IMG/VR virus record: IMGVR_UViG_3300031784_000003
Length of the DNA: 64,000 nucleotides
Reading direction: 5' to 3' (one strand)
DNA from: a virus
Taxonomy: Duplodnaviria > Caudoviricetes
A program made the translations under genes and the position numbers. Shown here piece by piece: positions 10,752-63,211 of the stretch (the first letter of the stretch is position 1; the number at the start of each line of letters is the position of its first letter). The notes beneath the pieces are model-generated. The model did no database searches. It worked only from the letters and a program-made list of their open reading frames with translations, and was not told the origin of the DNA.

Positions 10752-13652
10752 ATGGCAAAAATAAGTGGTAAAATAATAAATCCTATAAAAAGTGGTGGTG
10801 AGGTTATTAGAGAAATTGAGACACCTGTTGTTTTAAGAGTTGGTACAGACATTAACTATCAAGCATCATCTCTGTCTTCTTTTTTAGAAACCGAATCAGC
10901 ATTGTTTTTACCAACAAATTTATCTATGATAGATAATATTTTTGTATTATCTAAACCAGAAAAATATGGGCAGTCTATTTTTAGAGATAAATTAATTGAA
11001 AAAACTATTCCATTATATTTTTCTGGTAATAGTAGTGATAGTATTTTAACTACCCCAATAATACCTAATAATCAAATTAGATATATTGATGGGGGTAGAA
11101 AATATCAATTATTGGCTAGTAGGGGAGAAAGTTTACATATTGAAGTGGATATAAGTAATACTGAACCTTATATTCATGTGGAGAGGTCAGATTTTGATAG
11201 TTTTGATTTTCCTCAAATTACGATGAGATCTGTTCGTAAAATTCCTACATCTAGTGCGGAAACTTTATGTGGTCCTGTATCTTATACTGGGTATACATAT
11301 GATAGATTAAACTATAATTGGTTTTTTGGGCAAAATGTGGGTATAAGTTTTAACCCAATACAAAATGGTAATAATCCAATTACGATAAGTGGTGCGATGG
11401 TAACGCAGGAAGGATGCTCATCAATATCTAACGAAGAAGGTAAGTTATTGTTTTACACTAATGGTGAAACAGTATTTACTAGTGCTAATACTATTATGCT
11501 TAGTGGTGATAGTTTATCTAGTTCAGGAACATCAACACAATCGTCAATTATTGTCCCTAGACCGAATACGGATAAATATTATATATTTACTACTAACTAT
11601 AATGGTTTAACAAATGGGTTTAATTATTCTATAGTAGACATGAGTTTACAAAATGGTGACGGTCAAGTTACTACAAAAAATATACAACTAATTAGTAACC
11701 CTTTAACTGAAAAAGTTACTGCTTGTAGCCATAGTAATGGTGAAGATTATTGGGTAATAACACACACAAGTGGTGATAGTACATATTATAGTTATTACGT
11801 TTCGTCTATAGGTTTAACTGCACCAGTAACTACAAATATTGGTAGTGTTCACAATACTGTTAGGGGGTATATGAAAACATCTCCAGATGGTAATAAATTA
11901 ATTTCTTTACTATATGATGAAGACATTATAGATATTTTAGATTTTGAAAGTTCTGCAGGTACACTATCTAATTTGATTAGTATTACGGGAATGACATTTA
12001 ATGTTGGTCCGTATGGTTTAGAATTTTCTTCAGATTCGTCTAAGTTCTATGTTTCTGATGGTGCAGGCGAAAAAATCTACCAATTTGATTTATCATATAC
12101 ATCGGCAACGGAAATGGTTAATAATGTAATAGAGGTGGCAGATATTAGTGGGGCTACTTTAGGTGCATTACAAATGGGTCCTGATGAGAGAATTTATGTG
12201 GCAGATTATAATAGTGATAAATTACATATAATACATAGGCCAAATGGTTTAGGTGTTCAATGTAATTTTCAGGAAGATGGATTCACATTAACATCGTCTA
12301 CAGTGACAGGTACAACATCATTGTGGGGATTACCAAACGTCATCACTTCTAAAAGTATTTCTTGTGATAGATGTGTGTTTATAACCCCAAAAACTCAATC
12401 AGGTTTTCAGTTTGATTTATTGGTTAATAACATAAATGGAGTTATTGAAACAAATAAGTTATCGTATTATGGTGAGATTTATAAATACAATAGTAATACA
12501 CAAGTTTTTAATAATTCTGCATTGTATAATTTTTCACTACCATATGAAACTTTAACTGCAAATACAGGTAACACAATTTTTATACCTTCTTTGAACATAG
12601 GTGAAGGGGAATTTTTATTAAAATCTTATTGGAATTATGATGTCAATACACTTTTGGCTAAACAACAATTAGTAAGAAAGAATAGTTTAGACACATATAA
12701 AAGAGGTAATTTATATGGTATCTACTATCCTGAAACAGATTGGTATTTTATTAATATTTTTTCTGCGGATAAACCACTATTTAATAATAGTGTTGCACCA
12801 TCTCCACCATCTTTAAACACATTTACCGTTTCGACACAATTTACTAATTCAGGACAAACTGATTATTTTATAGATGGGTTATCTGACCCAATAGTAAGTT
12901 ATAATGGTTCTGTATTGGCAAAGGATATTGAGTATAGTGCTATAACAACAGGTGCAACACCATTTATAAGACTTTCATTTAGTCCATTAGATAATCAAAT
13001 ATTAACATACGCATTTATTTCAAACGGTAAAACAAATGATTTATTGGCAGACACATATCCGATAACGTCACCAATCAGTAGTGGGGTAACTCAATCTACG
13101 TCAGATAGAGTATTTTTTAATACAACTACTTTAAAATATGAATTTTATTTAACTAGTTCTCCAGCAACTGATGTAGTTTTATCTTTAAATGGATCAATTT
13201 TGTCTAAAGATATCGAATATTATAGATCAATTAGTGACAATAGAAGAATAATTTTAGAAAATAATTTAAATGTTGGAGATGTATTAGAGGCGTTTTATGT
13301 TCCTAACGCAGCGATTAATGGTGGAATAAGTACAAACACACCAATAATAAGTTGGTCAATAAATAGTGCACCATCTACCGAAATATATGGTCGTTTTACT
13401 GTTGAGATTACTTCTTCAACAGACATAGAGTTCCAAAGTGTCATATATAGTGAAATAGTAGACTATGAATTAAATCAAAAAACTTATAGTAAGATGATAA
13501 CGTTGACAAATGCGGTGGCAGGAGATAAATTTATATATAGAGTTAAAAATGAAAAATTTTATACACCAATTATAGGTGAAACTATTTATGATGTGTCATA
13601 TAGTGATGTAAATAAAATACAAATATTGACAAATGCTGGTAATGCATATTAA
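10752..13652 (+). CDS. Tail/receptor-binding protein with beta-propeller domain
   Basis: NWFFG..GISF, EGCSSISNEEGKLLFYTNG, SSTQSSIIVP and YWVITH motifs resemble the propeller of Bacteroidota T9SS/PKD surface proteins. Confidence 0.55.
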   Translation: MAKISGKIINPIKSGGEVIREIETPVVLRVGTDINYQASSLSSFLETESALFLPTNLSMIDNIFVLSKPEKYGQSIFRDKLIEKTIPLYFSGNSSDSILTTPIIPNNQIRYIDGGRKYQLLASRGESLHIEVDISNTEPYIHVERSDFDSFDFPQITMRSVRKIPTSSAETLCGPVSYTGYTYDRLNYNWFFGQNVGISFNPIQNGNNPITISGAMVTQEGCSSISNEEGKLLFYTNGETVFTSANTIMLSGDSLSSSGTSTQSSIIVPRPNTDKYYIFTTNYNGLTNGFNYSIVDMSLQNGDGQVTTKNIQLISNPLTEKVTACSHSNGEDYWVITHTSGDSTYYSYYVSSIGLTAPVTTNIGSVHNTVRGYMKTSPDGNKLISLLYDEDIIDILDFESSAGTLSNLISITGMTFNVGPYGLEFSSDSSKFYVSDGAGEKIYQFDLSYTSATEMVNNVIEVADISGATLGALQMGPDERIYVADYNSDKLHIIHRPNGLGVQCNFQEDGFTLTSSTVTGTTSLWGLPNVITSKSISCDRCVFITPKTQSGFQFDLLVNNINGVIETNKLSYYGEIYKYNSNTQVFNNSALYNFSLPYETLTANTGNTIFIPSLNIGEGEFLLKSYWNYDVNTLLAKQQLVRKNSLDTYKRGNLYGIYYPETDWYFINIFSADKPLFNNSVAPSPPSLNTFTVSTQFTNSGQTDYFIDGLSDPIVSYNGSVLAKDIEYSAITTGATPFIRLSFSPLDNQILTYAFISNGKTNDLLADTYPITSPISSGVTQSTSDRVFFNTTTLKYEFYLTSSPATDVVLSLNGSILSKDIEYYRSISDNRRIILENNLNVGDVLEAFYVPNAAINGGISTNTPIISWSINSAPSTEIYGRFTVEITSSTDIEFQSVIYSEIVDYELNQKTYSKMITLTNAVAGDKFIYRVKNEKFYTPIIGETIYDVSYSDVNKIQILTNAGNAY

Positions 13653-13691
13653 TAATTAAAAATTAGAATATTTATTTAAAAATAAAGGGAA

Positions 13692-15926
13692 ATGAGTTAC
13701 ATAAATAAACAAAGTACTACGTTAGTAAGAGTAAAACTAACAGATATAGGTAGAGAACAATTAGCAAAAGGACAATTAACCTTCACCAACTACATTATAG
13801 GTGATTCTGAGGTTGATTATAATTACGTAAAGGGTTGGAAAGAATTTGTCCCATCTGCTGGGGCAGCAACAGGACAATTTTATTTTACTAATCCTGATGG
13901 TAACATTCAAAAAAATATATTCTCTAAAGTACTGAGACCAAAAGATGATAATCCATTTTTCTCTACTTTTCTACTTAATCAAAGTAACCAGTTTTTATTT
14001 CCTTTAAATCAACAAAGTAATATACAATTAATTAAAGGTTTAGTGTCTAATAAGGCAGAAGATAGAGGTTTCTTTTCTGGATCAACAGTAGACACAGGAT
14101 TAATTGCTCAATCAGATACTAAATTTATAAAAGAGAGTGGTACTATAGATTTAGGTAAATTTAATGGTAATATTAATTTAAGTACATATACACAAGGGGT
14201 TTTAGTTTTAGATACTCCATTAACTGCAACTAGCGTAAACGATTATATAGTATTTAGATTTAGTAATCCAACATTAGGTAACGTTACTGGAGACACTATG
14301 ACTGCAGCGACAATAAATACTACTTATAGTATCACATATTTAAGTGGTTCGACAATAAGGGTAGATAGAACATTACCTACATTAAGTGCATACTCAGGCA
14401 CAATTATTAGTTATTATACAATACCTGGTGGTGATGATCCCACAGATAGTTATTATGGATTAAATTCACTTACTGCGTATTGGAATACAGGTACACTATC
14501 CTTCGAAAGTAGTTGTGATGTTTGTGTTGAGAACATACCTGTATGGAATATGAATAATGTTTGGACAGAAAACCCCGCAGGACTTTATAAAGATTCGCCA
14601 GTTAATTTTCACGAACATAATTTATTTGGTTCTGAAGAATACACTGGTACAAAACAATATTTAGGGTATAATGAAAATTTAGTTTGTGATACTAATGACG
14701 CTAATTCTATATGTGGTGTTAATGAGTCAATTAGTTATATTGACCCATATAGAAAATCTATTTCTATAATACATTATACGAATAGTTGTATTTCTAATTT
14801 TTATGGTGAACAATTTTACATTGATGCAGAAACTGGTAAACTTTTAAATTTAGATATACCTGTTATGTGGCATAGAAGAAATGATGTTGGTACATCAAGT
14901 GGTACGACATTAGGTATGAGATTTACATCTGATGGAGTTAAGAAAACATTGAGTTCTAATAATGATGTAGAATATTATGATTTAATAGAGTATAGTGGAA
15001 TGTCAGTTACACCTACACTACCTTTAGTAGTTGGTAAAGTTTTCCCTCAATTACAAATAGTTGTTATCGATAATGAGGAATTAATTGCGGCTATGTCATA
15101 TAGATCGAATAGAAATTATACATTACCTGATTTATCAGCGGAATTAATAACATCGGTTAGTGGTAATTGTACGGGAGTTCTTAAAGCTGGTGAGAGAATG
15201 TATTTAACTTATTGGTTAGAGAACGTAGGAACAGGTACGACTAATGTTACAACACCTATATTACCTTGCCAAAGATATTCGGTTATAGATAATAACACTA
15301 GTTCAGATAAAGACGTTCAGTTTAGAATTAACAATCTTGGTCAATTACCATATATGAGGAAAAAAGAAGATGCGTCTTATGACGGATATGGATTCTTTGC
15401 AGATACATTTAAAGTGTTGGCACAAGTGGTTAACCCAAATACTCAGTTAAGACCGATACCATCTAATTGGAAGGTTATGGACTTCACTAGTAATAAAATT
15501 ACAGTCAATAGTGGTGAAACAATTAGTCCATCATTATTAGAAAACCAAAATCCTAATATTACTGGATTTATTATGACAGGTTCACTTTATAGTGGGTCGT
15601 CTACATTTAATTTAGGTGCAGAATTGGATATGCCTAACGCTAGTTACTATGGTAGATTAAACTTTGGTAAAGAAAGATTATTCTATGGTAACCTTAGAAC
15701 ATATATAGGGGCAACAATATACAAGTCACTATTCAATATAAATGTTGATGGGGCAACTATATCATCTAGTAGTAATCCAACATATGAGTTTGGTTATGAC
15801 AGATATATAAGTGAGATTGGTATATTAGATAGTAGTCAAAATTTAGTTTTGGTGGGTAAATTATCCAGACCAATAAGATTGGCTGATTCTACAACCGCTT
15901 CAATAGAATTAACAATAGATTTTTAA
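13692..15926 (+). CDS. Tail-collar/fibre-attachment-like protein
   Basis: N-terminal VKLTDIGREQLAKG..YIIGDSEVDY and C-terminal ISEIGILD..LVLVGKL (DUF3751-like ends). Confidence 0.5.
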   Translation: MSYINKQSTTLVRVKLTDIGREQLAKGQLTFTNYIIGDSEVDYNYVKGWKEFVPSAGAATGQFYFTNPDGNIQKNIFSKVLRPKDDNPFFSTFLLNQSNQFLFPLNQQSNIQLIKGLVSNKAEDRGFFSGSTVDTGLIAQSDTKFIKESGTIDLGKFNGNINLSTYTQGVLVLDTPLTATSVNDYIVFRFSNPTLGNVTGDTMTAATINTTYSITYLSGSTIRVDRTLPTLSAYSGTIISYYTIPGGDDPTDSYYGLNSLTAYWNTGTLSFESSCDVCVENIPVWNMNNVWTENPAGLYKDSPVNFHEHNLFGSEEYTGTKQYLGYNENLVCDTNDANSICGVNESISYIDPYRKSISIIHYTNSCISNFYGEQFYIDAETGKLLNLDIPVMWHRRNDVGTSSGTTLGMRFTSDGVKKTLSSNNDVEYYDLIEYSGMSVTPTLPLVVGKVFPQLQIVVIDNEELIAAMSYRSNRNYTLPDLSAELITSVSGNCTGVLKAGERMYLTYWLENVGTGTTNVTTPILPCQRYSVIDNNTSSDKDVQFRINNLGQLPYMRKKEDASYDGYGFFADTFKVLAQVVNPNTQLRPIPSNWKVMDFTSNKITVNSGETISPSLLENQNPNITGFIMTGSLYSGSSTFNLGAELDMPNASYYGRLNFGKERLFYGNLRTYIGATIYKSLFNINVDGATISSSSNPTYEFGYDRYISEIGILDSSQNLVLVGKLSRPIRLADSTTASIELTIDF

Positions 15927-45874: not shown

Positions 45875-45953
45875 AAAAAATAATTTTTTTTTAAAAAACA
45901 TTTGACTTTTTAGAAAATAGTATATAAATTTGTATTCAGAAATAAAAAAAGAT

Positions 45954-49166: not shown

Positions 49167-50165
49167 ATGAATAAAGATTATTACCAAATTTTAGGAGTAG
49201 ATAGAAGTGCGAATGAATCCGACATAAAAAAAGCATATAGAAAATTATCTAAAGAGTATCATCCAGATCTAAACCCAAATAATAAAGAGGCAGAAGAAAA
49301 GTTTAAAAGTATTGCCGAAGCGTATTCTGTGTTGTCAGACAAAGAAAAAAAAATAAATTATGATAGATTTGGGACTGCGGATGGTAGAACAAATCCTTTT
49401 GGTGGTATGAATATGGATGACATATTTTCTTCTTTTTATGGTAATATGAAATATGGAAGAAATATGAAAGGTGGAGACATTAGAATTAATGTAAAACTTA
49501 CATTAGAAGAAATGTATAATGGAGTCCAAAAGAAAATAATATATAGAAAATTATCTAAATGTGAACCTTGTATTGGTAGAGGTGGAGAAACAATTAGTTG
49601 CGTTACTTGTAATGGTATTGGTGTGGTAAATAATATTCAAAACACACCATTCGGTAAAATACAAACTACTACACATTGTCCTAACTGTTCTGGTAGTGGG
49701 CAAATCATTACTAAAAAATGTGGTATTTGTTCAGGTAATGGAGTTAGTCAACAAGAAATTCCTTTTGAGTTTGATTTACCTAGAGGAGTTATGGATGGTG
49801 AAATGTTAAGAGTTTTTGGTATGGGTAATTCAGTTAGAAATGGGGTGGAAGGAGATTTATTAATTAATATTATAGAAATACCACATGAAAAATTTAAGAG
49901 GGTAGGTTTAGATATACACCAAAAGATTAATTTAACGTATAAAGATTTAGTTTTAGGTAATGATTCTGTTGAGATAGATACTATAGACAATAAAATAAGG
50001 TTTAAAATACATCCTGGGACTAAGATTGGAACAATGTTAAGGGTACCTAATAAAGGGTTCATTAGAGAAAATTTAAACGGTGATATGTTATTGGAGATAT
50101 GGTTAGATATACCAACAAATATCGATGAAGAAGAAAAAGAAAAAATTAATTTATTAAAAATTTGA
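49167..50165 (+). CDS. dnaJ: DnaJ chaperone
   Basis: J-domain HPD, four CxxCxGxG motifs, C-terminal substrate-binding domain. Confidence 0.93.
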
Positions 50166-50647: not shown

Positions 50648-50837
50648 TAGTAATGGTATAAATAAAATTGCCACCGATCCAACCCTATCTAAACAAGAAA
50701 AGAATTGGGAGTTGATGAGTGTTTTAGGAATGAAATGGTCAGAAACAGTTTCTCTTACTGATGAAGACAGAGATTTTTTATTAACTAAGGTGGAGAAGAT
50801 TAAAATTCATATTGAAAAAAGTAGAAAATTACAATGA
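50625..50837 (+). CDS. Hypothetical protein
   Basis: 70-aa ORF overlapping its neighbours. Confidence 0.5.
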   Translation: MKKMQLDNSNGINKIATDPTLSKQEKNWELMSVLGMKWSETVSLTDEDRDFLLTKVEKIKIHIEKSRKLQ

Positions 50838-51745
50838 TAAGTTATATTGGTGGCAAGGCTAGGATTTCTAAATGGATAGTACCATTTATATCCGAAGATA
50901 TAGAAACATACGTAGAACCTTTTAGTGGTATGTTTTGGGTATTTTTTAGAATGGATTTAAAAAAATATCCTAATTTGAAGACTGTGGTTTATAACGACTT
51001 CAACGGGTTAAACGCAAATTTATTTTCTTGTTGTAAGGAGTATGATAAATTATGGGATGAAATAATTAAATATCCTTGTCAACAATTAGGGGTGACAGAT
51101 ACACCTCAGATTTATTCAGAAATGTTTAAACAATACCAGAATGAGTTATTCAGCTCGTCTGGTATTGTTATTACGGAAGAAAATAAATATGATATTGCAG
51201 CAAAATATGTGTACGTATTAACTCAAATATTTTCTGGTTCTAAACCTGAGACATCTAATTATATGGATTATAAAGGTAAATACAGATGTAAAGTATTAAT
51301 ATTTTTAGATAAACTTAAAGATAAAAAATATAGAGAACATTTTGATAAAATCACATTTATAGAAAATTTAGATTTTAGTGATGTTATACAGAAATATGAT
51401 TCCGAAAAAACTTATTTTTATGTCGATCCACCGTATTGGAAAACAGAAAATTACTATTCCAATCATGACTTTGATAGAAACGATCACGAAAGATTGGCAA
51501 TCGTATTAAAAAACATTAAAGGTAGATTTTCTTTAAGTTATTATGATTTTCCATTACTTAAAGAATGGTTTCCTAAAACAGAATATGTTTGGGAAATGAA
51601 AGAGTTTGCTAAAGCAGCAGCCGCTAAAAGTGGTGTAAAACAAAATATGGGTGAAGAATTACTCATTATGAATTATGGTGAGAACAAATACGTATTACCA
51701 TCTGAAGGGACTCAGTTAGATTTATTTAATCATACATTTTTATAG
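50834..51745 (+). CDS. Dam-like (D12 class) N6-adenine DNA methyltransferase
   Basis: SYIGGK, YVEPFSG, YNDFN, YVDPPY. Confidence 0.88.
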   Translation: MISYIGGKARISKWIVPFISEDIETYVEPFSGMFWVFFRMDLKKYPNLKTVVYNDFNGLNANLFSCCKEYDKLWDEIIKYPCQQLGVTDTPQIYSEMFKQYQNELFSSSGIVITEENKYDIAAKYVYVLTQIFSGSKPETSNYMDYKGKYRCKVLIFLDKLKDKKYREHFDKITFIENLDFSDVIQKYDSEKTYFYVDPPYWKTENYYSNHDFDRNDHERLAIVLKNIKGRFSLSYYDFPLLKEWFPKTEYVWEMKEFAKAAAAKSGVKQNMGEELLIMNYGENKYVLPSEGTQLDLFNHTFL

Positions 51746-51747
51746 AC

Positions 51748-52638
51748 ATGGGAAGAATACCTAAGAAAAGAAAAATTGAACAATTAGCATTGTTTAGTGC
51801 AGAAACTATGGAGGAAATAACAATATTTAAAGGGGAAGAAACTATAGATGATGTAGTTTTGATAGACGTAGTAGAATCCAAAGAGGTTGGGTTAGTAACC
51901 AATCAAATTTATTGTGGGGATACTGTTGAAACTATGAAAAAAATTAAAGACAAAAGTATTAATTTAATTTTAACTTCTCCACCATATTTGGCATCGATAA
52001 GAAAAGATAATCATAAATATCCAGGTGCTAAAGACCTAATTAAAGATAACCAACCAGTAAAAGAATATATTAGTTGGTTAATAGAAGTGTTTAAACAATA
52101 TGAAAGAATTTTGACAGATGAGGGTGTAATTGTATTTAATTATAGTTATACCACATTTAATCCATCTTTACCGTATATGTTAATTAATGAGGTGTTTGAA
52201 AATACATCATTAGAGATATATGATACGGCATCTTGGAAAAAGAAATCTTGTGTACCTTTAAGTGGGCATCCAAATAGAATGACTAGAATTGTTGAAATGG
52301 TTTATATTTTTGCGAAAACACCTAACTTTAGTGCAAATAAAATAGTATCTTCAGTATCTAAAACTGGACAGAAGTATTTCAATACGTATTATAATTTTAT
52401 TGAGGCAAAAAATAATGATGGTAAAGTGGAAGGACATGAGGCAACATTTTCTACAGAGTTTGCAAATTACTTTATAGATTTATACTCAAAACCGAATGAC
52501 ATTGTATTAGATAACTTTTCTGGTACGGGTACAACACCCTACGCCGCATCCAAAATGGGTAGACAGTATATTGGGATAGATTTAGTCGAAGATTACTGTG
52601 ACTACGCTAAGGAAAGACTTTCTAAACTATATAAATAA
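51748..52638 (+). CDS. N4-cytosine/N6-adenine DNA methyltransferase (beta class)
   Basis: LTSPPY precedes VLDNFSGTGTT. Confidence 0.88.
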   Translation: MGRIPKKRKIEQLALFSAETMEEITIFKGEETIDDVVLIDVVESKEVGLVTNQIYCGDTVETMKKIKDKSINLILTSPPYLASIRKDNHKYPGAKDLIKDNQPVKEYISWLIEVFKQYERILTDEGVIVFNYSYTTFNPSLPYMLINEVFENTSLEIYDTASWKKKSCVPLSGHPNRMTRIVEMVYIFAKTPNFSANKIVSSVSKTGQKYFNTYYNFIEAKNNDGKVEGHEATFSTEFANYFIDLYSKPNDIVLDNFSGTGTTPYAASKMGRQYIGIDLVEDYCDYAKERLSKLYK

Positions 52639-54214: not shown

Positions 54215-54401
54215 AAAAATATTTGTTTTTAAGTAAATTATATATATATTTGTAGATATAATAATAACACTAATGAGTTTATCTAAAAAAATATACGAAG
54301 AAATCAAGTATGAGGAAGAAAATATTTCTTACGATGAGAGTGGTTGGGTTGATAGAGTATTGTATACTAAAGATAAATTAAAAGAAAGTTCTTTGAAAAA
54401 T

Positions 54402-54802
54402 GGGGATGGTTTTGGATTTGACAATCAAAGGTTGAGTTCGGAATGATGCAAGCAGGGTTAGATGGAAACCCTTAAACACCTATCAAAACATAAATGCAAA
54501 CGCATACAACGTAGAGGATATCATGAGTATCCCAACTTCTATTACTCGCTCAGCGGTAGTTGAAGAGATTGAATTAATGGAATTAGTTTAATCGGTGGGT
54601 CACACTTACCTAGAAACAGAAAGGTGTAAAAAATAGAGTTGATCGTCAATACTCTATAAACAATTGACGAAAACAGGGTTGTTGGATAACCATGTTATAA
54701 ATAAAACCAAATATTTTGTTTATTTAGAAAAATAAACTAAGCTTGTGAATGATTTTCTTATGGCGATTTGATTGGACGAGGGTTCGACTCCCTCCATCTC
54801 CA
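54402..54802 (+). ncRNA. ssrA: tmRNA
   Basis: 5' GGGGATG..GGATTTGAC; 3' T-arm GAGGG-TTCGACT-CCCTC and CATCTCCA with G3:U; resume codon GCA at 54496, tag ORF ends 54591. Confidence 0.92.
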
Positions 54803-54872
54803 CTAGTGTTGTCGGTTTCTTTGTTCCCTAAAAACAAAGTGGTGGAAGTTGATAGTAATCCTATCGGCCCTT

Positions 54873-54903
54873 TAACCCCTCAGAGTGAGGGGTTATTTTT
54901 TTT
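54873..54903 (+). terminator. Intrinsic terminator
   Basis: TAACCCCTCA-gag-TGAGGGGTTA followed by a T tract. Confidence 0.85.
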
Positions 54904-54944
54904 ATAATTTTAATATTTTGGGAAGGTACAAATTTGAAAATAAA

Positions 54945-55439
54945 ATGGATAAGGTATTAGTTTTAAATAATGACTATACTCCATTAAACTTGACTACACT
55001 TAAAAGGGGGTTTAAATTAGTATATAAAGGTAAGGCAGAAATAATTTATTATGATGAGTCAAATCCTATTATATCTAGTTTTAAAAATTTTAATAGACCT
55101 TCTGTAATTAGATTACACAGATTTATTTATACACCTTATAAAAAAGTACCTTTAAGTAGATATAATGTTTTTAGGAGGGATGATCATAAATGTGTATATT
55201 GTGGGACAAATAAAAATTTAACTATTGATCACGTAATACCTAAATCTAGGGGTGGTGATAATACTTGGAAAAATTTAGTTACGTGTTGTGGTGTATGTAA
55301 CCTTAAAAAAGATGATAGAACACCAGAAGAGGCTGGTATGTTGTTATTAAGAAAACCATATACTCCTACATATATTCAGTTTATTGAAAGAATGAATGGT
55401 GTAATTAAAGAAGAGTGGAAACAATTTTTAATGGTATGA
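54945..55439 (+). CDS. HNH endonuclease (McrA-like)
   Basis: VLVLNNDY start at 54945; CVYCG..TIDHVIPKSRGG..W.NLVTCC..CN.KK. Confidence 0.9.
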   Translation: MDKVLVLNNDYTPLNLTTLKRGFKLVYKGKAEIIYYDESNPIISSFKNFNRPSVIRLHRFIYTPYKKVPLSRYNVFRRDDHKCVYCGTNKNLTIDHVIPKSRGGDNTWKNLVTCCGVCNLKKDDRTPEEAGMLLLRKPYTPTYIQFIERMNGVIKEEWKQFLMV

Positions 55440-57727: not shown

Positions 57728-58036
57728 TTGATTATGTTTGAGATTATTGGTATTGTGTCTTTATTTGCGGTAGTATCTTTTTTACTGTTTATACAATATA
57801 GTTTAGTTGGTGCAGGTGTAATGAAAGAAAGTTTAAAGTGGTATGGGAAAGTTATTAGTTGGATCCCATTATTACCTTTTATTATATTTATTTTATTTTT
57901 TTTAAATTTTATGGTTATGATAGTGTTAAATAAATTAGTTAAGTGGTTTGAATTAAATTGGGGATGGTTTTTTATAAATGGTAGAAATCAAGCGGTTTGG
58001 GCAGAATATTTAAGAAAAAAATATGGTGAAGAATAA
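57728..58036 (+). CDS. Membrane protein
   Basis: Two long hydrophobic segments. Confidence 0.5.
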   Translation: MIMFEIIGIVSLFAVVSFLLFIQYSLVGAGVMKESLKWYGKVISWIPLLPFIIFILFFLNFMVMIVLNKLVKWFELNWGWFFINGRNQAVWAEYLRKKYGEE

Positions 58037-58040
58037 AAAA

Positions 58041-58086
58041 TAAAAAAATATTTTTAAAATATTGACTTTTTAGATAAACTTTTGTA
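58041..58086 (+). promoter_or_regulatory. Promoter of tRNA operon 1 (46-bp repeat, copy 1)
   Basis: taaaaaaatatttttaaaatattgactttttagataaacttttgta, identical to 59495..59540. Confidence 0.8.
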
Positions 58087-58117
58087 TAATTGGTTATATT
58101 TAATTAAAACAGTGAAA

Positions 58118-58204
58118 ATGAAAATACATAATATACATATTAATTTTAGCCAATGGTGTCAACCGTATATCGGCGGATTGGGGTATATTATGGATATAAT
58201 TTAA
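58118..58204 (+). CDS. Attenuator leader peptide 1 (MKIHNIHINFSQWCQPYIGGLGYIMDII)
   Basis: 28-codon ORF between promoter and terminator (in-frame GTG also at 58112); codons match operon 1 tRNAs. Confidence 0.75.
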   Translation: MKIHNIHINFSQWCQPYIGGLGYIMDII

Positions 58205-58230
58205 TTGATAGTTAAATAAAATCAAAGTGA

Positions 58231-58265
58231 AACCCCAATTCAGAAATGATTTGGGGTTTTTTAAT
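58231..58265 (+). terminator. Attenuator terminator 1
   Basis: AAACCCCAATTCA-gaaa-TGATTTGGGGTTT plus U tract; competing strand ATTGGGGT at 58177..58184. Confidence 0.85.
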
Positions 58266-58271
58266 TTATTA

Positions 58272-58347
58272 CGGTATGTGGCCAAGTAGGTTTAAGGCAT
58301 CTCGCTGATATCGAGAAGATTCGTAGGTTCGATCCCTACCATACCGA
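58272..58347 (+). tRNA. tRNA-Ile(GAT)
   Basis: Cloverleaf; TCTCG-CTGATAT-CGAGA. Confidence 0.9.
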
Positions 58348-58356
58348 CAGAACAAA

Positions 58357-58370
58357 AGTTCTTTGACATA
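58357..58370 (+). promoter_or_regulatory. boxA-like antitermination element
   Basis: AGTTCTTTGACATA; also at 59742, with variants at about 47372 and 54387. Confidence 0.6.
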
Positions 58371-58387
58371 TTGTTATAAAAGTGAAT

Positions 58388-58460
58388 GACTCAGTAGCTC
58401 AGTTGGTAGAGCAATTGACTGTTAATCAATCGGTCGCAGGTTCGAATCCTGCCTGAGTCG
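58388..58460 (+). tRNA. tRNA-Asn(GTT)
   Basis: Cloverleaf; loop CTGTTAA. Confidence 0.95.
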
Positions 58461-58461
58461 C

Positions 58462-58523
58462 AAACTAACACAGAATGAATGATACGAGCCTCACAAGTTC
58501 GAAAGGAGTCAGGGTGTTAGTTT
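58462..58523 (+). ncRNA. Small structured element with anticodon-like stem-loop (CAC)
   Basis: 10-bp stem AAACTAACAC/GTGTTAGTTT enclosing CGAGC-CTCACAA-GTTCG. Confidence 0.4.
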
Positions 58524-58527
58524 AAAT

Positions 58528-58611
58528 GGGAATACGCCAAAGTTGGAGAGTTGGGGCAGACTGTAAATCTGTTGTCTTATGATTGAGTAGGTTCGAATCC
58601 TACTATTCTCA
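58528..58611 (+). tRNA. tRNA-Tyr(GTA)
   Basis: Cloverleaf with long variable arm; loop CTGTAAA. Confidence 0.92.
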
Positions 58612-58612
58612 C

Positions 58613-58693
58613 AAAATATTAAAAGGAAGATTTCAGCAAAAATAACTACGAACTGCAAATTTGGATATGTAAAAACATTTTCCTGAATATTTT
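58613..58693 (+). ncRNA. Minimal Y-RNA-like element with Cys anticodon-loop mimic
   Basis: AAAATATT/AATATTTT and AGGAAGAT/ATTTTCCT stems, TTCAGCAA motif, CGAA-CTGCAAA-TTTG hairpin. Confidence 0.5.
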
Positions 58694-58697
58694 ATTA

Positions 58698-58768
58698 GCG
58701 TCTCTGGTGTAACGGTAGCACCAACGGCTCCAACCCGTTAAGTAAGAGTTCGAATCTTTTGGGGCGCG
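58698..58768 (+). tRNA. tRNA-Trp(CCA)
   Basis: AACGG-CTCCAAC-CCGTT. Confidence 0.9.
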
Positions 58769-58773
58769 CAAAT

Positions 58774-58849
58774 GGTGATGTAGCTCAGTTGGTAGAGCAA
58801 TGGACTGAAAATCCTTGTGTCGGTGGTTCGATTCCGTCCATCACCACCA
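58774..58849 (+). tRNA. tRNA-Phe(GAA)
   Basis: Cloverleaf with encoded CCA. Confidence 0.95.
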
Positions 58850-58857
58850 AATTTTAA

Positions 58858-58932
58858 CTGGGTATTGGCTAATTGGTAAGCCGCCACATTTGGGATGTGG
58901 ACATAGTGTGAGTTCGAGTCTCGCTACCCAGA
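58858..58932 (+). tRNA. tRNA-Pro(TGG)
   Basis: CCACA-TTTGGGA-TGTGG. Confidence 0.92.
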
Positions 58933-58939
58933 CTAATAT

Positions 58940-59013
58940 TGTCCTGTAGACGAATTGGCAAAGTCATCACGCTTTGAACGTGAAGTTTGGAAGTTCGAGC
59001 CTTCCCAGGACAA
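58940..59013 (+). tRNA. tRNA-Gln(TTG)
   Basis: TCACG-CTTTGAA-CGTGA. Confidence 0.9.
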
Positions 59014-59015
59014 CT

Positions 59016-59089
59016 GTGTATGAAGCTAAAGAGGTCGAGGCGTCGGGTTGTGATTCCGATAATAGTGGGTTCGAGTCCCATCGTACACC
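59016..59089 (+). tRNA. tRNA-His(GTG)
   Basis: TCGGG-TTGTGAT-TCCGA; C73 discriminator. Confidence 0.9.
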
Positions 59090-59093
59090 TAAT

Positions 59094-59180
59094 GGAAAGA
59101 TGACAGAGTGGTTTATTGTGGCACCCTGCTAAGGTGTTGTACTCGAAAGGGTACCATAGGTTCAAATCCTATTCTTTCCG
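59094..59180 (+). tRNA. tRNA-Ser(GCT)
   Basis: GCACC-CTGCTAA-GGTGT; long variable arm. Confidence 0.92.
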
Positions 59181-59186
59181 CAATAT

Positions 59187-59258
59187 GGGGATGTGATGTA
59201 ACGGTGAACATGCTACTCTTATACAGTAGTCTCGGTGGTTCGACTCCACCCATCCCTA
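59187..59258 (+). tRNA. tRNA-Ile(TAT)
   Basis: CTACT-CTTATAC-AGTAG; GGGGATG/CATCCCT acceptor stem. Confidence 0.85.
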
Positions 59259-59262
59259 CAAC

Positions 59263-59335
59263 ACACTCTTAGTTCAATGGATTAGAACCTATGACTACGG
59301 ATCATAAAATGGGAGTTCGAATCTCTCAGAGTGTA
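59263..59335 (+). tRNA. tRNA-Arg(ACG)
   Basis: TATGA-CTACGGA-TCATA. Confidence 0.9.
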
Positions 59336-59404
59336 CAATAAACTTATTTTTGCTACAATAAACAGATAAAGTTTATCATGCAAAATCTAGTTTAGTGAAC
59401 TAAT

Positions 59405-59478
59405 GGTCAGATGCCTGAGTGGTTTAAAGGGGTAGTCTGCAAAACTATTTTTCGGGGGTTCGAATCCCTCTCTGACCT
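59405..59478 (+). tRNA. tRNA-Cys(GCA)
   Basis: GTAGT-CTGCAAA-ACTAT; U73. Confidence 0.92.
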
Positions 59479-59494
59479 CATAAATAAAAAAAAT

Positions 59495-59540
59495 TAAAAA
59501 AATATTTTTAAAATATTGACTTTTTAGATAAACTTTTGTA
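59495..59540 (+). promoter_or_regulatory. Promoter of tRNA operon 2 (46-bp repeat, copy 2)
   Basis: Identical to 58041..58086; followed by Bacteroidota -7 element TAACTTTG. Confidence 0.8.
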
Positions 59541-59578
59541 ACTTTGTGTATATTTAATTAAAAACGAAATAAAATTCA

Positions 59579-59677
59579 GTGAAAACTACAATGACATACA
59601 GATTAGAGGTTGCTAAGGCAAAAATGGATGGGGCGGATTCGCTTCTACCAAATCTTAGGGTATATCATTATAGTTAA
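59579..59677 (+). CDS. Attenuator leader peptide 2 (MKTTMTYRLEVAKAKMDGADSLLPNLRVYHYS)
   Basis: 32-codon GTG-start ORF in the same cagtgaaaa context as leader 1; codons match operon 2 tRNAs. Confidence 0.75.
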   Translation: MKTTMTYRLEVAKAKMDGADSLLPNLRVYHYS

Positions 59678-59706
59678 TCAAAAAAATTTAAAATACTATA
59701 TTATGG

Positions 59707-59740
59707 AAACCCTAAGTGAAAACTTAGGGTTTTTTGTTTT
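59707..59740 (+). terminator. Attenuator terminator 2
   Basis: AAACCCTAAGT-gaaa-ACTTAGGGTTT plus U tract; competing CTTAGGGT at 59654..59661. Confidence 0.88.
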
Positions 59741-59741
59741 T

Positions 59742-59755
59742 AGTTCTTTGACATA
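59742..59755 (+). promoter_or_regulatory. boxA-like element
   Basis: AGTTCTTTGACATA immediately after terminator 2. Confidence 0.6.
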
Positions 59756-59766
59756 TTAAAAAAAAT

Positions 59767-59852
59767 GGAAGAGTGGCAGAGTTGGTTTATTGCACCTGTC
59801 TTGAAAATAGGAGTACTTAACGGTACCGTAGGTTCGAATCCTACCTCTTCCT
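59767..59852 (+). tRNA. tRNA-Ser(TGA)
   Basis: CCTGT-CTTGAAA-ATAGG; long variable arm. Confidence 0.92.
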
Positions 59853-59855
59853 CAA

Positions 59856-59999
59856 AATGATAATAAAGGGATTGTTTCTGCAACAATTATTTTAGCCTTT
59901 TAAGCTCGGGGTCGTAGGTTCGAATCCTACCTGAGGACATTTATTGTCTTCAGTAGCTTAGTGGTAGAGCACGTATACAACCCAATCCTGATTATCATT
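59856..59999 (+). ncRNA. YrlA-like Y RNA (circularly permuted tRNA mimic)
   Basis: Closing stems AATGATAAT/ATTATCATT and GGGATTG/CAATCCT; T-arm precedes loop-closed acceptor stem CTGAGGAC/GTCTTCAG, then D-arm. Confidence 0.8.
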
Positions 60000-60004
60000 T
60001 ATTA

Positions 60005-60080
60005 GGTCCATTGGTGTAATGGTTTAACATACATCACTGTCTATGATGTGCTGAGAGTTCGATTCTCTCATGGACCGCCA
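60005..60080 (+). tRNA. tRNA-Asp(GTC)
   Basis: Cloverleaf with CCA. Confidence 0.93.
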
Positions 60081-60081
60081 C

Positions 60082-60154
60082 AGTCTCTTAACTCAGTTGG
60101 TAGAGTGCTTGTTTTACATGCAAGATGTCGTAGGTTCGAATCCTACAGAGACTA
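60082..60154 (+). tRNA. tRNA-Val(TAC)
   Basis: CTTGT-TTTACAT-GCAAG. Confidence 0.92.
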
Positions 60155-60162
60155 CTAAATAC

Positions 60163-60236
60163 CGCCCGTTGGACAAGTGGTTTAAGTCGTTTCCCTTTCA
60201 CGGAAAAGATCATGGGTTCGAATCCCATACGGGTGA
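60163..60236 (+). tRNA. tRNA-Glu(TTC)
   Basis: TTTCC-CTTTCAC-GGAAA. Confidence 0.92.
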
Positions 60237-60242
60237 CTATTA

Positions 60243-60314
60243 GGTTTTGTAGTTTAGTCGGTAAAACTCTTGATTTGTAATCAAGTGTCCTCAGTTCGAA
60301 TCTGAGCGAAACCT
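60243..60314 (+). tRNA. tRNA-Thr(TGT)
   Basis: CTTGA-TTTGTAA-TCAAG. Confidence 0.9.
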
Positions 60315-60320
60315 CAACAA

Positions 60321-60395
60321 TCCTTCGTAGCTCAGTTGGTTTAGAGCAGTACACTTTTAATGTACGGGTCACAGGTTCGATTCCTGTCGGGGGAA
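60321..60395 (+). tRNA. tRNA-Lys(TTT)
   Basis: GTACA-CTTTTAA-TGTAC. Confidence 0.93.
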
Positions 60396-60429
60396 CTTAA
60401 ATATACCGAATTCGGTGTAATTAAAAAAT

Positions 60430-60507
60430 AGCGGGGTAGACTGGAGGTGGTTCCAGCTCGGTCTCATAAGCCGAATTACGTGGGTTCGAGTCCCATCCCC
60501 GCAACCA
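60430..60507 (+). tRNA. tRNA-Met(CAT), initiator-like
   Basis: TCGGT-CTCATAA-GCCGA; unpaired A1:A72; CCA encoded. Confidence 0.85.
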
Positions 60508-60510
60508 ATT

Positions 60511-60584
60511 GGGTCATTGGTGAAGATGGCTATCACACCTGATTTGCACTCAGGAGTCCTCGGTTCGATGCCGAGATGTATCCA
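60511..60584 (+). tRNA. tRNA-Ala(TGC) with bulged acceptor stem
   Basis: CCTGA-TTTGCAC-TCAGG; G3:U70 present; one extra T in the 3' acceptor strand. Confidence 0.8.
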
Positions 60585-60750
60585 CTAATAATAAAAATAA
60601 AAATAAAAAGTATGAAAGAAGTAATGTCTGGGACAATTAAGTCCTCAAAGGAAAATTTTAATATGTTGAGACATAGAAAAAATTCAATCGATTTAAGTAA
60701 GTTGGTAGAATTTATTAAATTTAAAAAGATTAGGAAAAAATAATCTTAAT

Positions 60751-60823
60751 GCAGGTATCGTATAGTGGTTTATTATGTCTGACTTCCAATCAGAGGACGA
60801 GAGTTCGATTCTCTCTACCTGCT
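60751..60823 (+). tRNA. tRNA-Gly(TCC)
   Basis: TCTGA-CTTCCAA-TCAGA; U73. Confidence 0.92.
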
Positions 60824-60829
60824 CAAAAT

Positions 60830-60904
60830 GCCAAAGTGACGGGAAATGGTATACCTCTTTGTCTTAGAAACAAAGGTTTGTGAGTTCGAATCTCACCTTT
60901 GGTA
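60830..60904 (+). tRNA. tRNA-Leu(TAG) with short variable loop
   Basis: TTTGT-CTTAGAA-ACAAA; 5-nt variable region GGTTT. Confidence 0.8.
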
Positions 60905-61134
60905 CAATTATTATTAAAATATTTGTTTTTTAATTTAATAGTTTTTATATTTGTTAAAAAAATATTATGGGAATACCTCAAATCACTTTAATTTTATTAT
61001 TTTCTTTAAGTTTATTAGCTGCAGCTCATTTGCACGGTAAAGAAAGAACCCCACATAACTTTTGGGTTACATTTATTGCAGTCATCATCGAAGTATCTAT
61101 TTTAATATGGGGTGGGTTTTTTTAAATTAGTATT

Positions 61135-62906: not shown

Positions 62907-63211
62907 AATCCATAAGACAAATTTTTAAAACTAACGATTCACTTATGGAAGAACCTGAGGTTTCAGAATTAATTGATTATTGTAAAGATTTAGAAGATGA
63001 AGTTGTAGAATGTATCCAAAAAAATGATCAGACAATAGTTTTAAAACAACTAATTTCAGAAATTAGTAAAAGTTGTTATGAATTAATTGAGGAAGATAAA
63101 AAGTCTGAACGATGGGAACATGATTTTGAAAAGATTGACTTTAAAAAATCTATAATTAATTTAAGAGAATATATAATAAAATATTGTTTAGATAATAAAA
63201 TAAAATTATGA
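62903..63211 (+). CDS. Hypothetical protein
   Basis: 102-aa ORF overlapping both neighbours by 4 nt. Confidence 0.55.
   Translation: MKSIRQIFKTNDSLMEEPEVSELIDYCKDLEDEVVECIQKNDQTIVLKQLISEISKSCYELIEEDKKSERWEHDFEKIDFKKSIINLREYIIKYCLDNKIKL

Follow-up and report, generated by a model that had tools for sequence, protein, structure and literature searches.

The 64,000-nt stretch of DNA analysed here (the window; IMG/VR virus record IMGVR_UViG_3300031784_000003, G+C 28%) comes from an uncultured giant phage and carries two arrays of tRNA genes. Each array lies behind a cassette composed of a promoter, a leader open reading frame (ORF) and a terminator with an alternative antiterminator; the 46-bp direct repeat found ahead of both arrays is part of this duplicated cassette. 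Each leader's regulatory codons correspond to the tRNAs of the array behind it, not to those of the other array. We consider it likely that the two cassettes act as ribosome-mediated attenuators, by analogy with trp, his and ilv attenuation, each making its tRNA array a supply loop that limits itself. The cassettes, the arrays and the associated elements described below are all on the plus strand.

Array 1 (58272-59479) comprises 12 genes in the order Ile-GAU, Asn, Tyr, Trp, Phe, Pro, Gln, His, Ser-GCU, Ile-UAU, Arg-ACG, Cys. Array 2 (59767-60905) comprises 10, in the order Ser-UGA, Asp, Val, Glu, Thr, Lys, Met, Ala, Gly, Leu-UAG. The ARAGORN and Rfam calls coincide for both arrays and bear out the preliminary description of this DNA, according to which the arrays jointly supply the 20 amino acids and Ser is divided by codon box. 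Indeed, the 22 genes cover all 20 amino acids, Ser being the sole one split between arrays (GCU in array 1, UGA in array 2), and Ile is doubled within array 1. Neither array serves TTR or AGR, the codons that the phage mainly uses for Leu and Arg.

Leader codons and the predicted terminator/antiterminator switch

Leader ORF 1 (58118-58204; MKIHNIHINFSQWCQPYIGGLGYIMDII) has 28 codons, of which codons 3-18 constitute a census of array 1. Leader ORF 2 (59579-59677) has 32 codons when counted from a GTG at 59579, or 28 from an ATG at 59591 (MTYRLEVAKAKMDGADSLLPNLRVYHYS). It is probably read from the in-frame GTG; the upstream start is an ATG in five of the six variants of this cassette, and L008, one of the related contigs, lacks the inner ATG with the frame kept. 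The leader frames are open in all variants despite a 6-nt in-frame insertion and the loss of the inner ATG. The common leader-start context reported earlier was recovered as CAGTGAAAA, at 58110-58118 and 59576-59584. We infer from the sequence that the leaders are translated and that read-through beyond them is regulated.

Codons were assigned to tRNAs by standard wobble rules. The leaders were ranked among all stop-free 16-codon segments in the six frames of the window (n=46,676; 18-codon segments for leader 2) and compared with Monte Carlo draws of codons from the phage's own usage. The 16 codons of leader 1 starting at 58124 read 11 of the 12 array-1 species and all of them (16/16) belong to the array-1 set; this segment ranked first of the 46,676, with Monte Carlo probabilities of 2e-6 for the coverage and 2.5e-7 for 16/16 in the set. 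The 18 codons of leader 2 starting at 59591 read all array-2 species (10/10) and also ranked first (Monte Carlo P = 5.5e-4). From the GTG to codon 23, 19/22 codons of leader 2 fall in the array-2 set. Leader segments of the relatives L005, L006 and L008 were again first or tied first in the ranking. In L008, leader 1 is re-ordered (MIMNNIHSNPIQWCQPFYIY) and contains a 6-nt in-frame insertion, with 17/17 codons in the array-1 set.

The proposal that the match is made at the level of codons holds for the split families Ser, Leu and Ile. All leader 1 variants have AGY codons for Ser, and all leader 2 variants have TCG; the window leaders use AGC and TCG, which account for 1% and 5%, respectively, of the phage Ser codons. 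Leu is encoded by CTN (CTT CTA) in the census part of leader 2, though CTN makes up only 17% of the phage Leu codons, and both ATA and ATY codons for Ile are present in leader 1.

Each leader contains the elements of a terminator/antiterminator switch. In the minimum-free-energy fold of ribosome-free leader 1, regions 1 (58127-58146) and 2 (58175-58192) pair with each other, as expected from an anti-antiterminator. This stem is strong and, as judged by eye from the alignment, shows one compensatory T-A to C-G change in L008. The GGAUUGGGGU part of region 2 (58175-58184) pairs with region 3, and the GUAUAUUAUG part with region 1. Terminator 1 (58232-58263) is formed by region 3 (ACCCCAAUUC), region 4 (GAUUUGGGGU) and a U tract. 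Only 9 nt separate its end from tRNA-Ile-GAU, an interval into which, therefore, no promoter fits. In leader 2, region 2 (59654-59661; CUUAGGGU) pairs with region 3 (ACCCUAAG), and terminator 2 (59708-59737) consists of AACCCUAAGU, a GAAA loop, ACUUAGGGUU and a U tract. Both terminators combine a strong hairpin with a U tract and stand before the first tRNA gene of the array.

The switch was modelled by folding the RNA with a ribosome footprint placed at each codon. In this model, region 3 of leader 1 pairs with region 2 when the ribosomal A site is on codons 1-15, and is free for the terminator when the A site is on codons 16-27 or no ribosome is present. In leader 2, the CUUAGGGU:ACCCUAAG antiterminator forms unless the ribosome has reached codon 23 or beyond, a behaviour that is clear in L005 and in L008/L044.

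Comparison of the cassettes provided additional evidence for the switch. Cassettes 1 and 2 are paralogues over their whole length and differ by matched changes in regions 2, 3 and 4 (TTGGGG/CCCCAA/TTGGGG versus TTAGGG/CCCTAA/TTAGGG), the end of the helix being A-U in one and C-G in the other. When pairs were counted in eight cassettes, 98.4% of cells were paired in the antiterminator (8-10 bp, regions 2:3) and 98.6% in the terminator (regions 3:4), each having two pairs in which both partners had changed. A one-column shift of the partners lowered the pairing to 47-65%. Region 2 effectively duplicates region 4. None of the Rfam riboswitch models, T-box included, matched the interval 57900-61000 at E values up to 1, and a reading of the leaders as a T-box or another riboswitch was discarded for want of such a covariance-model match.

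In the mechanism that we propose, scarcity of a charged tRNA would make a census codon slow, holding the ribosome on the census codons and leaving region 2 free. Pairing of free region 2 with region 3 would prevent formation of the terminator and allow RNA polymerase to enter the tRNA array. If, on the other hand, the census codons were all read fast, the ribosome would lie over region 2 as region 3 emerges; the terminator would then form and the array would not be transcribed. The loop of each array would regulate the supply of its own 10-12 tRNAs.

Promoters, boxA-like motifs and the arrays of relatives

The two copies of the repeat (58041-58086 and 59495-59540) are exact and 46 bp is the maximal length of their identity, in line with the earlier report of a perfect repeat heading both operons; a looser similarity spans 81 nt at 90% identity (58029-58109 versus 59483-59563). 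Copy 1 includes the A/T-rich upstream part, the -33 element and the spacer of promoter 1 (58062-58092), and copy 2 the corresponding parts of promoter 2 (59516-59546). The sigma-A promoter consensus of Bacteroidota, known from studies of Bacteroides fragilis promoters, combines a -33 TTTG with a -7 TAnnTTTG. Both promoters of the window have a -33 TTG(AC) and a 20-nt spacer. The -7 box of promoter 2, TAACTTTG, matches TAnnTTTG perfectly and that of promoter 1, TATAATTG, with one mismatch. Judged from these motifs, the element is a promoter of the Bacteroidota type, TTG-N20-TAnnTTTG, with predicted transcription starts near 58097 (promoter 1) and near 59551 (promoter 2). At the place of promoter 1, relatives have a -33 TTTG and either TAACTTTG or TATATTTG as -7 box. 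The identity of the two copies in the window stops exactly at the -7 box (TATAATTG versus TAACTTTG), and the two promoters may therefore differ in strength. The "duplicated promoter" of the preliminary description was thus correct in that the repeat is part of a promoter, by sequence of the Bacteroidota type, but the two -7 boxes are not alike.

The TTG-N20-TAnnTTTG pattern was found 10 times in the window, mostly before plus-strand genes, against 2.0 occurrences expected (a 5-fold excess); none of 100 shuffled sequences reached 10. No other TAnnTTTG promoter with a -33 element was found inside either array. Within a genome, the two promoter segments are 0.96 (window), 0.99 (L005) or 0.91 (L008) identical, whereas orthologous segments of different genomes are 0.79-0.93 identical; the copies being more alike within than between genomes, concerted evolution is indicated. 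Reading of the window sequence revealed no Shine-Dalgarno sequences before its genes. A sigma-70 reading of copy 1 (TTGACT-17-TATAAT) was rejected, as the TATAAT is without conservation and copy 2 and all relatives keep TAnnTTTG instead. Also set aside was a partial repeat at 63123-63142, which lies inside an ORF and has no -7 box. No terminator was found between tRNA-Cys and cassette 2; transcripts reading through array 1 should therefore also reach attenuator 2. Hence, the notion of separately gated operons stands insofar as each array has its own promoter, leader ORF and terminator/antiterminator cassette, but not in the sense of insulation, there being no terminator after tRNA-Cys.

A 15-nt motif, GTTCTTTGACATATT, occurs in exactly two copies in the window, one after each attenuator: at 58358-58372, between tRNA-Ile-GAU and tRNA-Asn, and at 59743-59757, between terminator 2 and tRNA-Ser-UGA, where all relatives have it as GTTCTTTGACGTATT. 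The phage transfer-messenger RNA (tmRNA) gene is directly preceded, at 54388-54402, by a variant, GTTCTTTGAAAAATG. The motif resembles the boxA of Escherichia coli, TGCTCTTTAACAA. A search for the exact 15-mer in 185,579 species genomes returned mostly Bacteroidota, and the sequence lies in the 16S-23S spacer of many Bacteroidota genomes. Among occurrences with enough sequence context, 36/90 were within 1200 nt downstream of the 16S 3' end and 42/103 upstream of the conserved 23S 5' region, at a median distance of 121.5 nt. Thus, some 40% of the occurrences with context are at what appears, by sequence, to be the boxA place of the spacer. This suggests that GTTCTTTGACATATT is a boxA-like element at which antitermination factors would be loaded once polymerase is past the gate; the enzyme would then probably resist further termination over the untranslated array. 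The exact matches, which include Chitinophagia and Sphingobacteriia, also point to a Bacteroidota as the host. A literature search for the boxA sequence yielded nothing usable.

Relatives of the window phage in IMG/VR measure 250-326 kb. Those bearing the arrays comprised seven IMG/VR contigs and three metagenome contigs, among which cassette 1 occurs in four distinct variants and cassette 2 in six; in every one of them, down to 78% identity, cassettes are present at both places. The order of array 1 is unchanged in L005, L006, L008 and L044, and the content of array 2 is the same in L005, L006 and L032. In L007, L008, L009 and L044, array 2 is without Asp, Glu and a Y RNA-like element (see below), and its Ser-UGA gene is called by neither ARAGORN nor Rfam. 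These four contigs have a third tRNA cluster 7 kb downstream (Leu-UAA, Arg-UCU, Asp, Glu, Met); a third cluster is likewise found in L005 and L006, and the window ends before the corresponding place. No cassette of the present kind was found upstream of the third cluster in the relatives. Since some relatives lack the Asp and Glu genes of array 2 and relatives carry extra tRNAs elsewhere, the complete partition of the 20 amino acids seen in the window is not conserved as a design. We suggest that two cassettes are needed because about 15-20 codons fit where a stalled ribosome leaves region 2 free; given this limited capacity of a leader, the partition would be a consequence rather than a conserved principle.

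Several other observations concern the arrays themselves. Array 2 contains every one of the five GNN-box tRNAs (Val, Ala, Asp, Glu, Gly; P ~0.01 by a post-hoc hypergeometric estimate), and anticodons start with G in 7/12 genes of array 1 and with U in 8/10 genes of array 2, biases that may stem from the history of the arrays or from modification requirements. The spacer separating tRNA-Asn from tRNA-Tyr (58462-58527; 66 nt) could fold into a hairpin, AAACUAACAC...GUGUUAGUUU, carrying a GUUCGAA loop-like motif; in L006, an insertion of 630 nt is found at this spacer. In the 167-nt gap between tRNA-Ala and tRNA-Gly, a 55-aa ORF (60576-60743; 43 aa from an inner ATG at 60612) has no match in PHROG. 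The third-cluster regions of L009 (16150-16610), L005 (13950-14430) and L006 (18450-18950) contain G+C-rich, probably structured sequence and (homing-)endonuclease-like ORFs, and that of L006 contains the motif GTTCATTGACATATTGG.

In distant relatives the flanking genes are the same and the arrays are replaced by other genes. The closest array-less relative, L003, has the same flanks around 12058-14460, where a 62-aa lipoprotein-like ORF follows a TTTG...TATATTTG promoter and a 657-aa ORF gave no hit in Pfam; the array region is thus seen to be a variable island. The window stretch is present in sequencing runs from 16 studies, labelled mostly as lake, reservoir, drinking or other fresh water. 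Independent DNA assemblies of many freshwater samples contain the stretch, with contigs ending at the 46-bp repeat. Deposited phages in INPHARED gave generic tRNA similarity only and no relative, and the exact promoter 25-mer had no copy in IMG/VR. The pattern CARTGGTGTCAACCG proved unspecific as a search probe, yielding at least 114 mostly chance loci among which only L132 was new. A metagenome scan with the terminator-1 tail returned 12 loci, of which only L038, L041 and L044 were relatives.

Weighing the explanations

A number of observations weigh against the attenuator interpretation. On the side of the switch, the terminator is part of the best equilibrium fold of leader 1 at every ribosome position. 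Since the terminator wins at equilibrium, the usual kinetic assumption is needed, namely that capture of region 3 precedes synthesis of region 4. When a ribosome waits on the stop codon, region 2 becomes available once more in the simple footprint model. With the ribosome at codon 23 or beyond, region 3 of the window's leader 2, and of those of L006 and L032, keeps 6-9 of its 10 bases paired upstream, and the region 1:2 pairing of leader 2 is weak and without clear conservation. The covariation evidence rests on few events, there being 4-6 distinct variants per cassette. The -7 box of promoter 1 in the window is imperfect. On the side of the census, no variant of leader 1 has a codon for Arg-ACG, and leader 2 of L007, L008, L009 and L044 keeps GAT, GAA/GAG and TCG despite the loss of Asp and Glu from array 2. 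In the comparison of array rearrangements with leader codons, which the preliminary description had recommended, the codon sets are kept, but Asp, Glu and Ser codons persist where the Asp and Glu genes are lost and Ser-UGA is not called, so that a leader does not closely track its array over short times. Finally, RNA-labelled runs (one metatranscriptome and two doubtful RNA runs) contained small shares of the sequence, with Logan contigs matching at 90-99%; these matches are mostly to tRNA bodies of relatives or other organisms and tell nothing of starts, ends or levels.

Some of these findings would fit real ribosome-dependent attenuators that report the general status of translation or the time of infection rather than the state of particular tRNAs. 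The signal would be the slowing of host translation after shut-off, or ribosome availability, and the census would merely make the leader slow. The leaders are enriched in rare synonymous codons (CCG, TCG, AGC, ATC, GTC, ACG; P 0.03 to 0.0002 across variants), CCG for example representing 4% of the phage Pro codons. Such codons would slow any ribosome; they could stem from constraints on RNA structure or from tuning for slow decoding. A general sensor would, moreover, account for the absence of an Arg-ACG codon and for an L008-type leader that ignores the loss of Asp and Glu genes. What it does not require is two mutually exclusive codon sets that match their own arrays (16/16 and 19/22 codons), nor has it any need for a codon set that is kept while its order changes. 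On balance we regard a sensor of this sort as unlikely. Less still speaks for the cassettes being independent small genes, specifying a micropeptide or a small RNA of ~165-185 nt, with the arrays transcribed through terminator leak or from upstream and a codon match that is not regulatory. Each unit is complete by itself, with promoter, ORF and strong terminator, and there is a precedent from other bacteria for terminated attenuator RNAs and leader peptides having functions of their own (10.1101/606483). Such genes leave unexplained the census statistics, the mimicry of region 4 by region 2 with its matched changes between paralogues, and the 9-nt distance between terminator 1 and tRNA-Ile in the absence of another promoter; we consider them quite improbable.

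The possibility that the repeat is a functionless by-product of recent recombination or duplication, all the rest being coincidence in an A/T-rich genome, seems to us hardly credible. It is true that A/T-rich intergenic DNA yields many weak repeats and that matches with two mismatches to the promoter 13-mer, TTGACTTTTTAGA, are at chance level (11 found versus 8 expected). Against this stand the conservation of both cassettes at both places in every array-bearing relative, the 5-fold enrichment of the promoter pattern, and a census and covariation that oppose coincidence. Twin attenuators coupled to the charging of their own tRNAs thus remain the explanation we favour. If it is true, phage tRNA genes would be under closed-loop control that reads the decoding state and would not simply be constitutive cargo adjusting codon usage. 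Classical attenuation, described for amino-acid and synthetase genes, would be extended to tRNA genes, and the phage would possess a compact natural device that senses how available each of 22 tRNAs is. It would also become possible to test at what time and for what purpose large phages express tRNAs, a response to host defences that cleave tRNA being one possibility. The twin cassettes would make a favourable test object, as they have promoter and backbone in common and differ in census and matched stem positions.

Neighbouring genes and comparison with known systems

A putative Y RNA gene resembling YrlA (59856-59997) lies inside array 2, in the 150-nt gap between tRNA-Ser-UGA and tRNA-Asp. 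The predicted RNA has a long closing stem and a permuted tRNA-like module made up of a T arm, an acceptor-like hairpin and a D arm. A local search with Rfam RF02553 scored 30.9 bits (E 3e-5), below the gathering score of 69, and only model positions 24-84, corresponding to the tRNA-like module, align. The fold z-score of the element is -3.3 and the long closing stem forms. In L005, L006 and L032, compensatory changes (judged by eye) give the T arm and acceptor-like hairpin other sequences with pairing kept; L008-type relatives are devoid of the element. YrlA RNAs adjoining Ro60 genes are known in bacteria and phages (PMC4201824).

The window also encodes a Ro60-like candidate. The protein specified by 45954-47369 matches DUF2828 and DUF7788 in Pfam and no TROVE domain, and belongs to PHROG 850, annotated "RNA-binding protein". 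It has a DVSGS sequence (MIDAS motif) at residues 275-279, and no sequence match to any PDB chain was found. The AlphaFold2 model was poor (pLDDT 55.6, with 15 close homologues), so that only the ranking of its matches was used: the top 13 PDB hits in Foldseek are all Ro60/TROVE proteins, matched over the full length (E 1.5e-7 to 1.4e-3), with TM values of only 0.32-0.39 owing to the quality of the model. Homologues abound in aquatic metagenomes, with 7981 hits at E<=1e-10 among 8000 candidates scored; the best 120, as listed, are 76-98% identical. A literature search on DUF2828/TROVE yielded nothing usable. The exact 13-mer TTGACTTTTTAGA occurs three times in the window (45902, 58062 and 59516), the chance expectation for any one exact copy being estimated at ~0.01. 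The third copy is intergenic and precedes the ATG of the DUF2828 gene by 52 nt, within a predicted promoter (45902-45932) whose -7 box is TAAATTTG. The observation that the core sequence precedes a TROVE-like gene was thus correct; the co-regulation read from it reduces to a shared promoter class with about 10 members in the window, and no specific regulon is shown. The Ro60-like fold, as ranked from the model, and the YrlA-like RNA in array 2 are a better basis for a link to the arrays than the promoter. Tentatively, the census attenuators, the boxA-like elements, the Y RNA of array 2 and the Ro60-like gene might form one phage module that monitors decoding codon by codon. Depletion or cleavage of host tRNAs, for example through an anticodon-nuclease defence or the phage's own shut-off, would stall ribosomes on the leaders and turn on precisely the missing tRNA set, with RNA quality control driven from the same promoter class. 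We rate this extended scheme as possible but rather doubtful.

Other genes in the vicinity include the tmRNA gene (54402-54805; 104 bits in Rfam), for which ARAGORN predicts an unusually long tag peptide, ANAYNVEDIMSIPTSITRSAVVEEIELMELV. The tag is near-identical in L132 and short (AKEEVVFA) in the L008 type. The segments 49167-50165, 50834-52638 and 54885-55439 encode a full-length DnaJ with J, zinc-finger and C-terminal domains, two DNA methyltransferases, one of the D12 class (N6-adenine) and one of the N6/N4 type, and an HNH endonuclease.

Multivalent leader-peptide attenuators are exemplified by the ilvGMEDA and thr operons of E. coli and Salmonella, whose leaders sense several amino acids at once; trpL, hisL, pheL and leuL are further attenuators of the leader-peptide type. 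To our knowledge, all those described control amino-acid biosynthesis or related protein genes, and our literature search found no description of leader-peptide control of tRNA genes or phage tRNA clusters. Like the attenuators of amino-acid operons, the phage cassettes have a promoter-proximal short ORF rich in the sensed codons and a terminator with a 5' arm that can pair with a leader segment instead, the choice between the two helices being predicted to depend on where the ribosome stands. Unlike them, they would control 22 tRNA genes and a Y RNA-like gene, so that the charged tRNA sensed is also the product made. Instead of runs of codons for 1-3 amino acids, the phage leaders have about one codon for each of 10-12 tRNA species. 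They differ further in forming two paralogous cassettes, in having the ORF extend across region 2, and in belonging to a host type without Shine-Dalgarno sequences. T-box leaders resemble those of the phage in sensing tRNA status through a terminator/antiterminator switch, but a T-box binds one uncharged tRNA via a specifier codon without translation, and 10-12 tRNAs are beyond the reach of a single T-box.

Other parts of the system also have known counterparts. As in ribosomal RNA operon antitermination, where boxA, with NusB/NusE, acts in the leader and the 16S-23S spacer, a boxA-like sequence is present, and GTTCTTTGACATATT is identical to the Bacteroidota spacer motif. The phage motif, in contrast, heads tRNA arrays and, as a variant, directly precedes the tmRNA gene, and the role of Nus factors is putative. 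The compact, one-strand arrays with interspersed small ORFs and small RNAs recall the tRNA clusters of T4, T5 and phiCbK-like phages, from whose described organization the window arrays differ in lying behind predicted leader-peptide cassettes. The Y RNA-like gene, with its closing stem and tRNA-like module, and a protein whose matches include a Thermus phage Ro60/TROVE protein resemble Ro60 (Rsr)/YrlA systems; unlike the neighbouring genes of those systems (PMC4201824), the Y RNA of the window is 12.5 kb from the protein gene, in a tRNA array behind an attenuator. Set against all these systems, the features that are new are the tRNA-gene target, a census that allots one codon to each tRNA species, and a pair of paralogous cassettes that share out the code.

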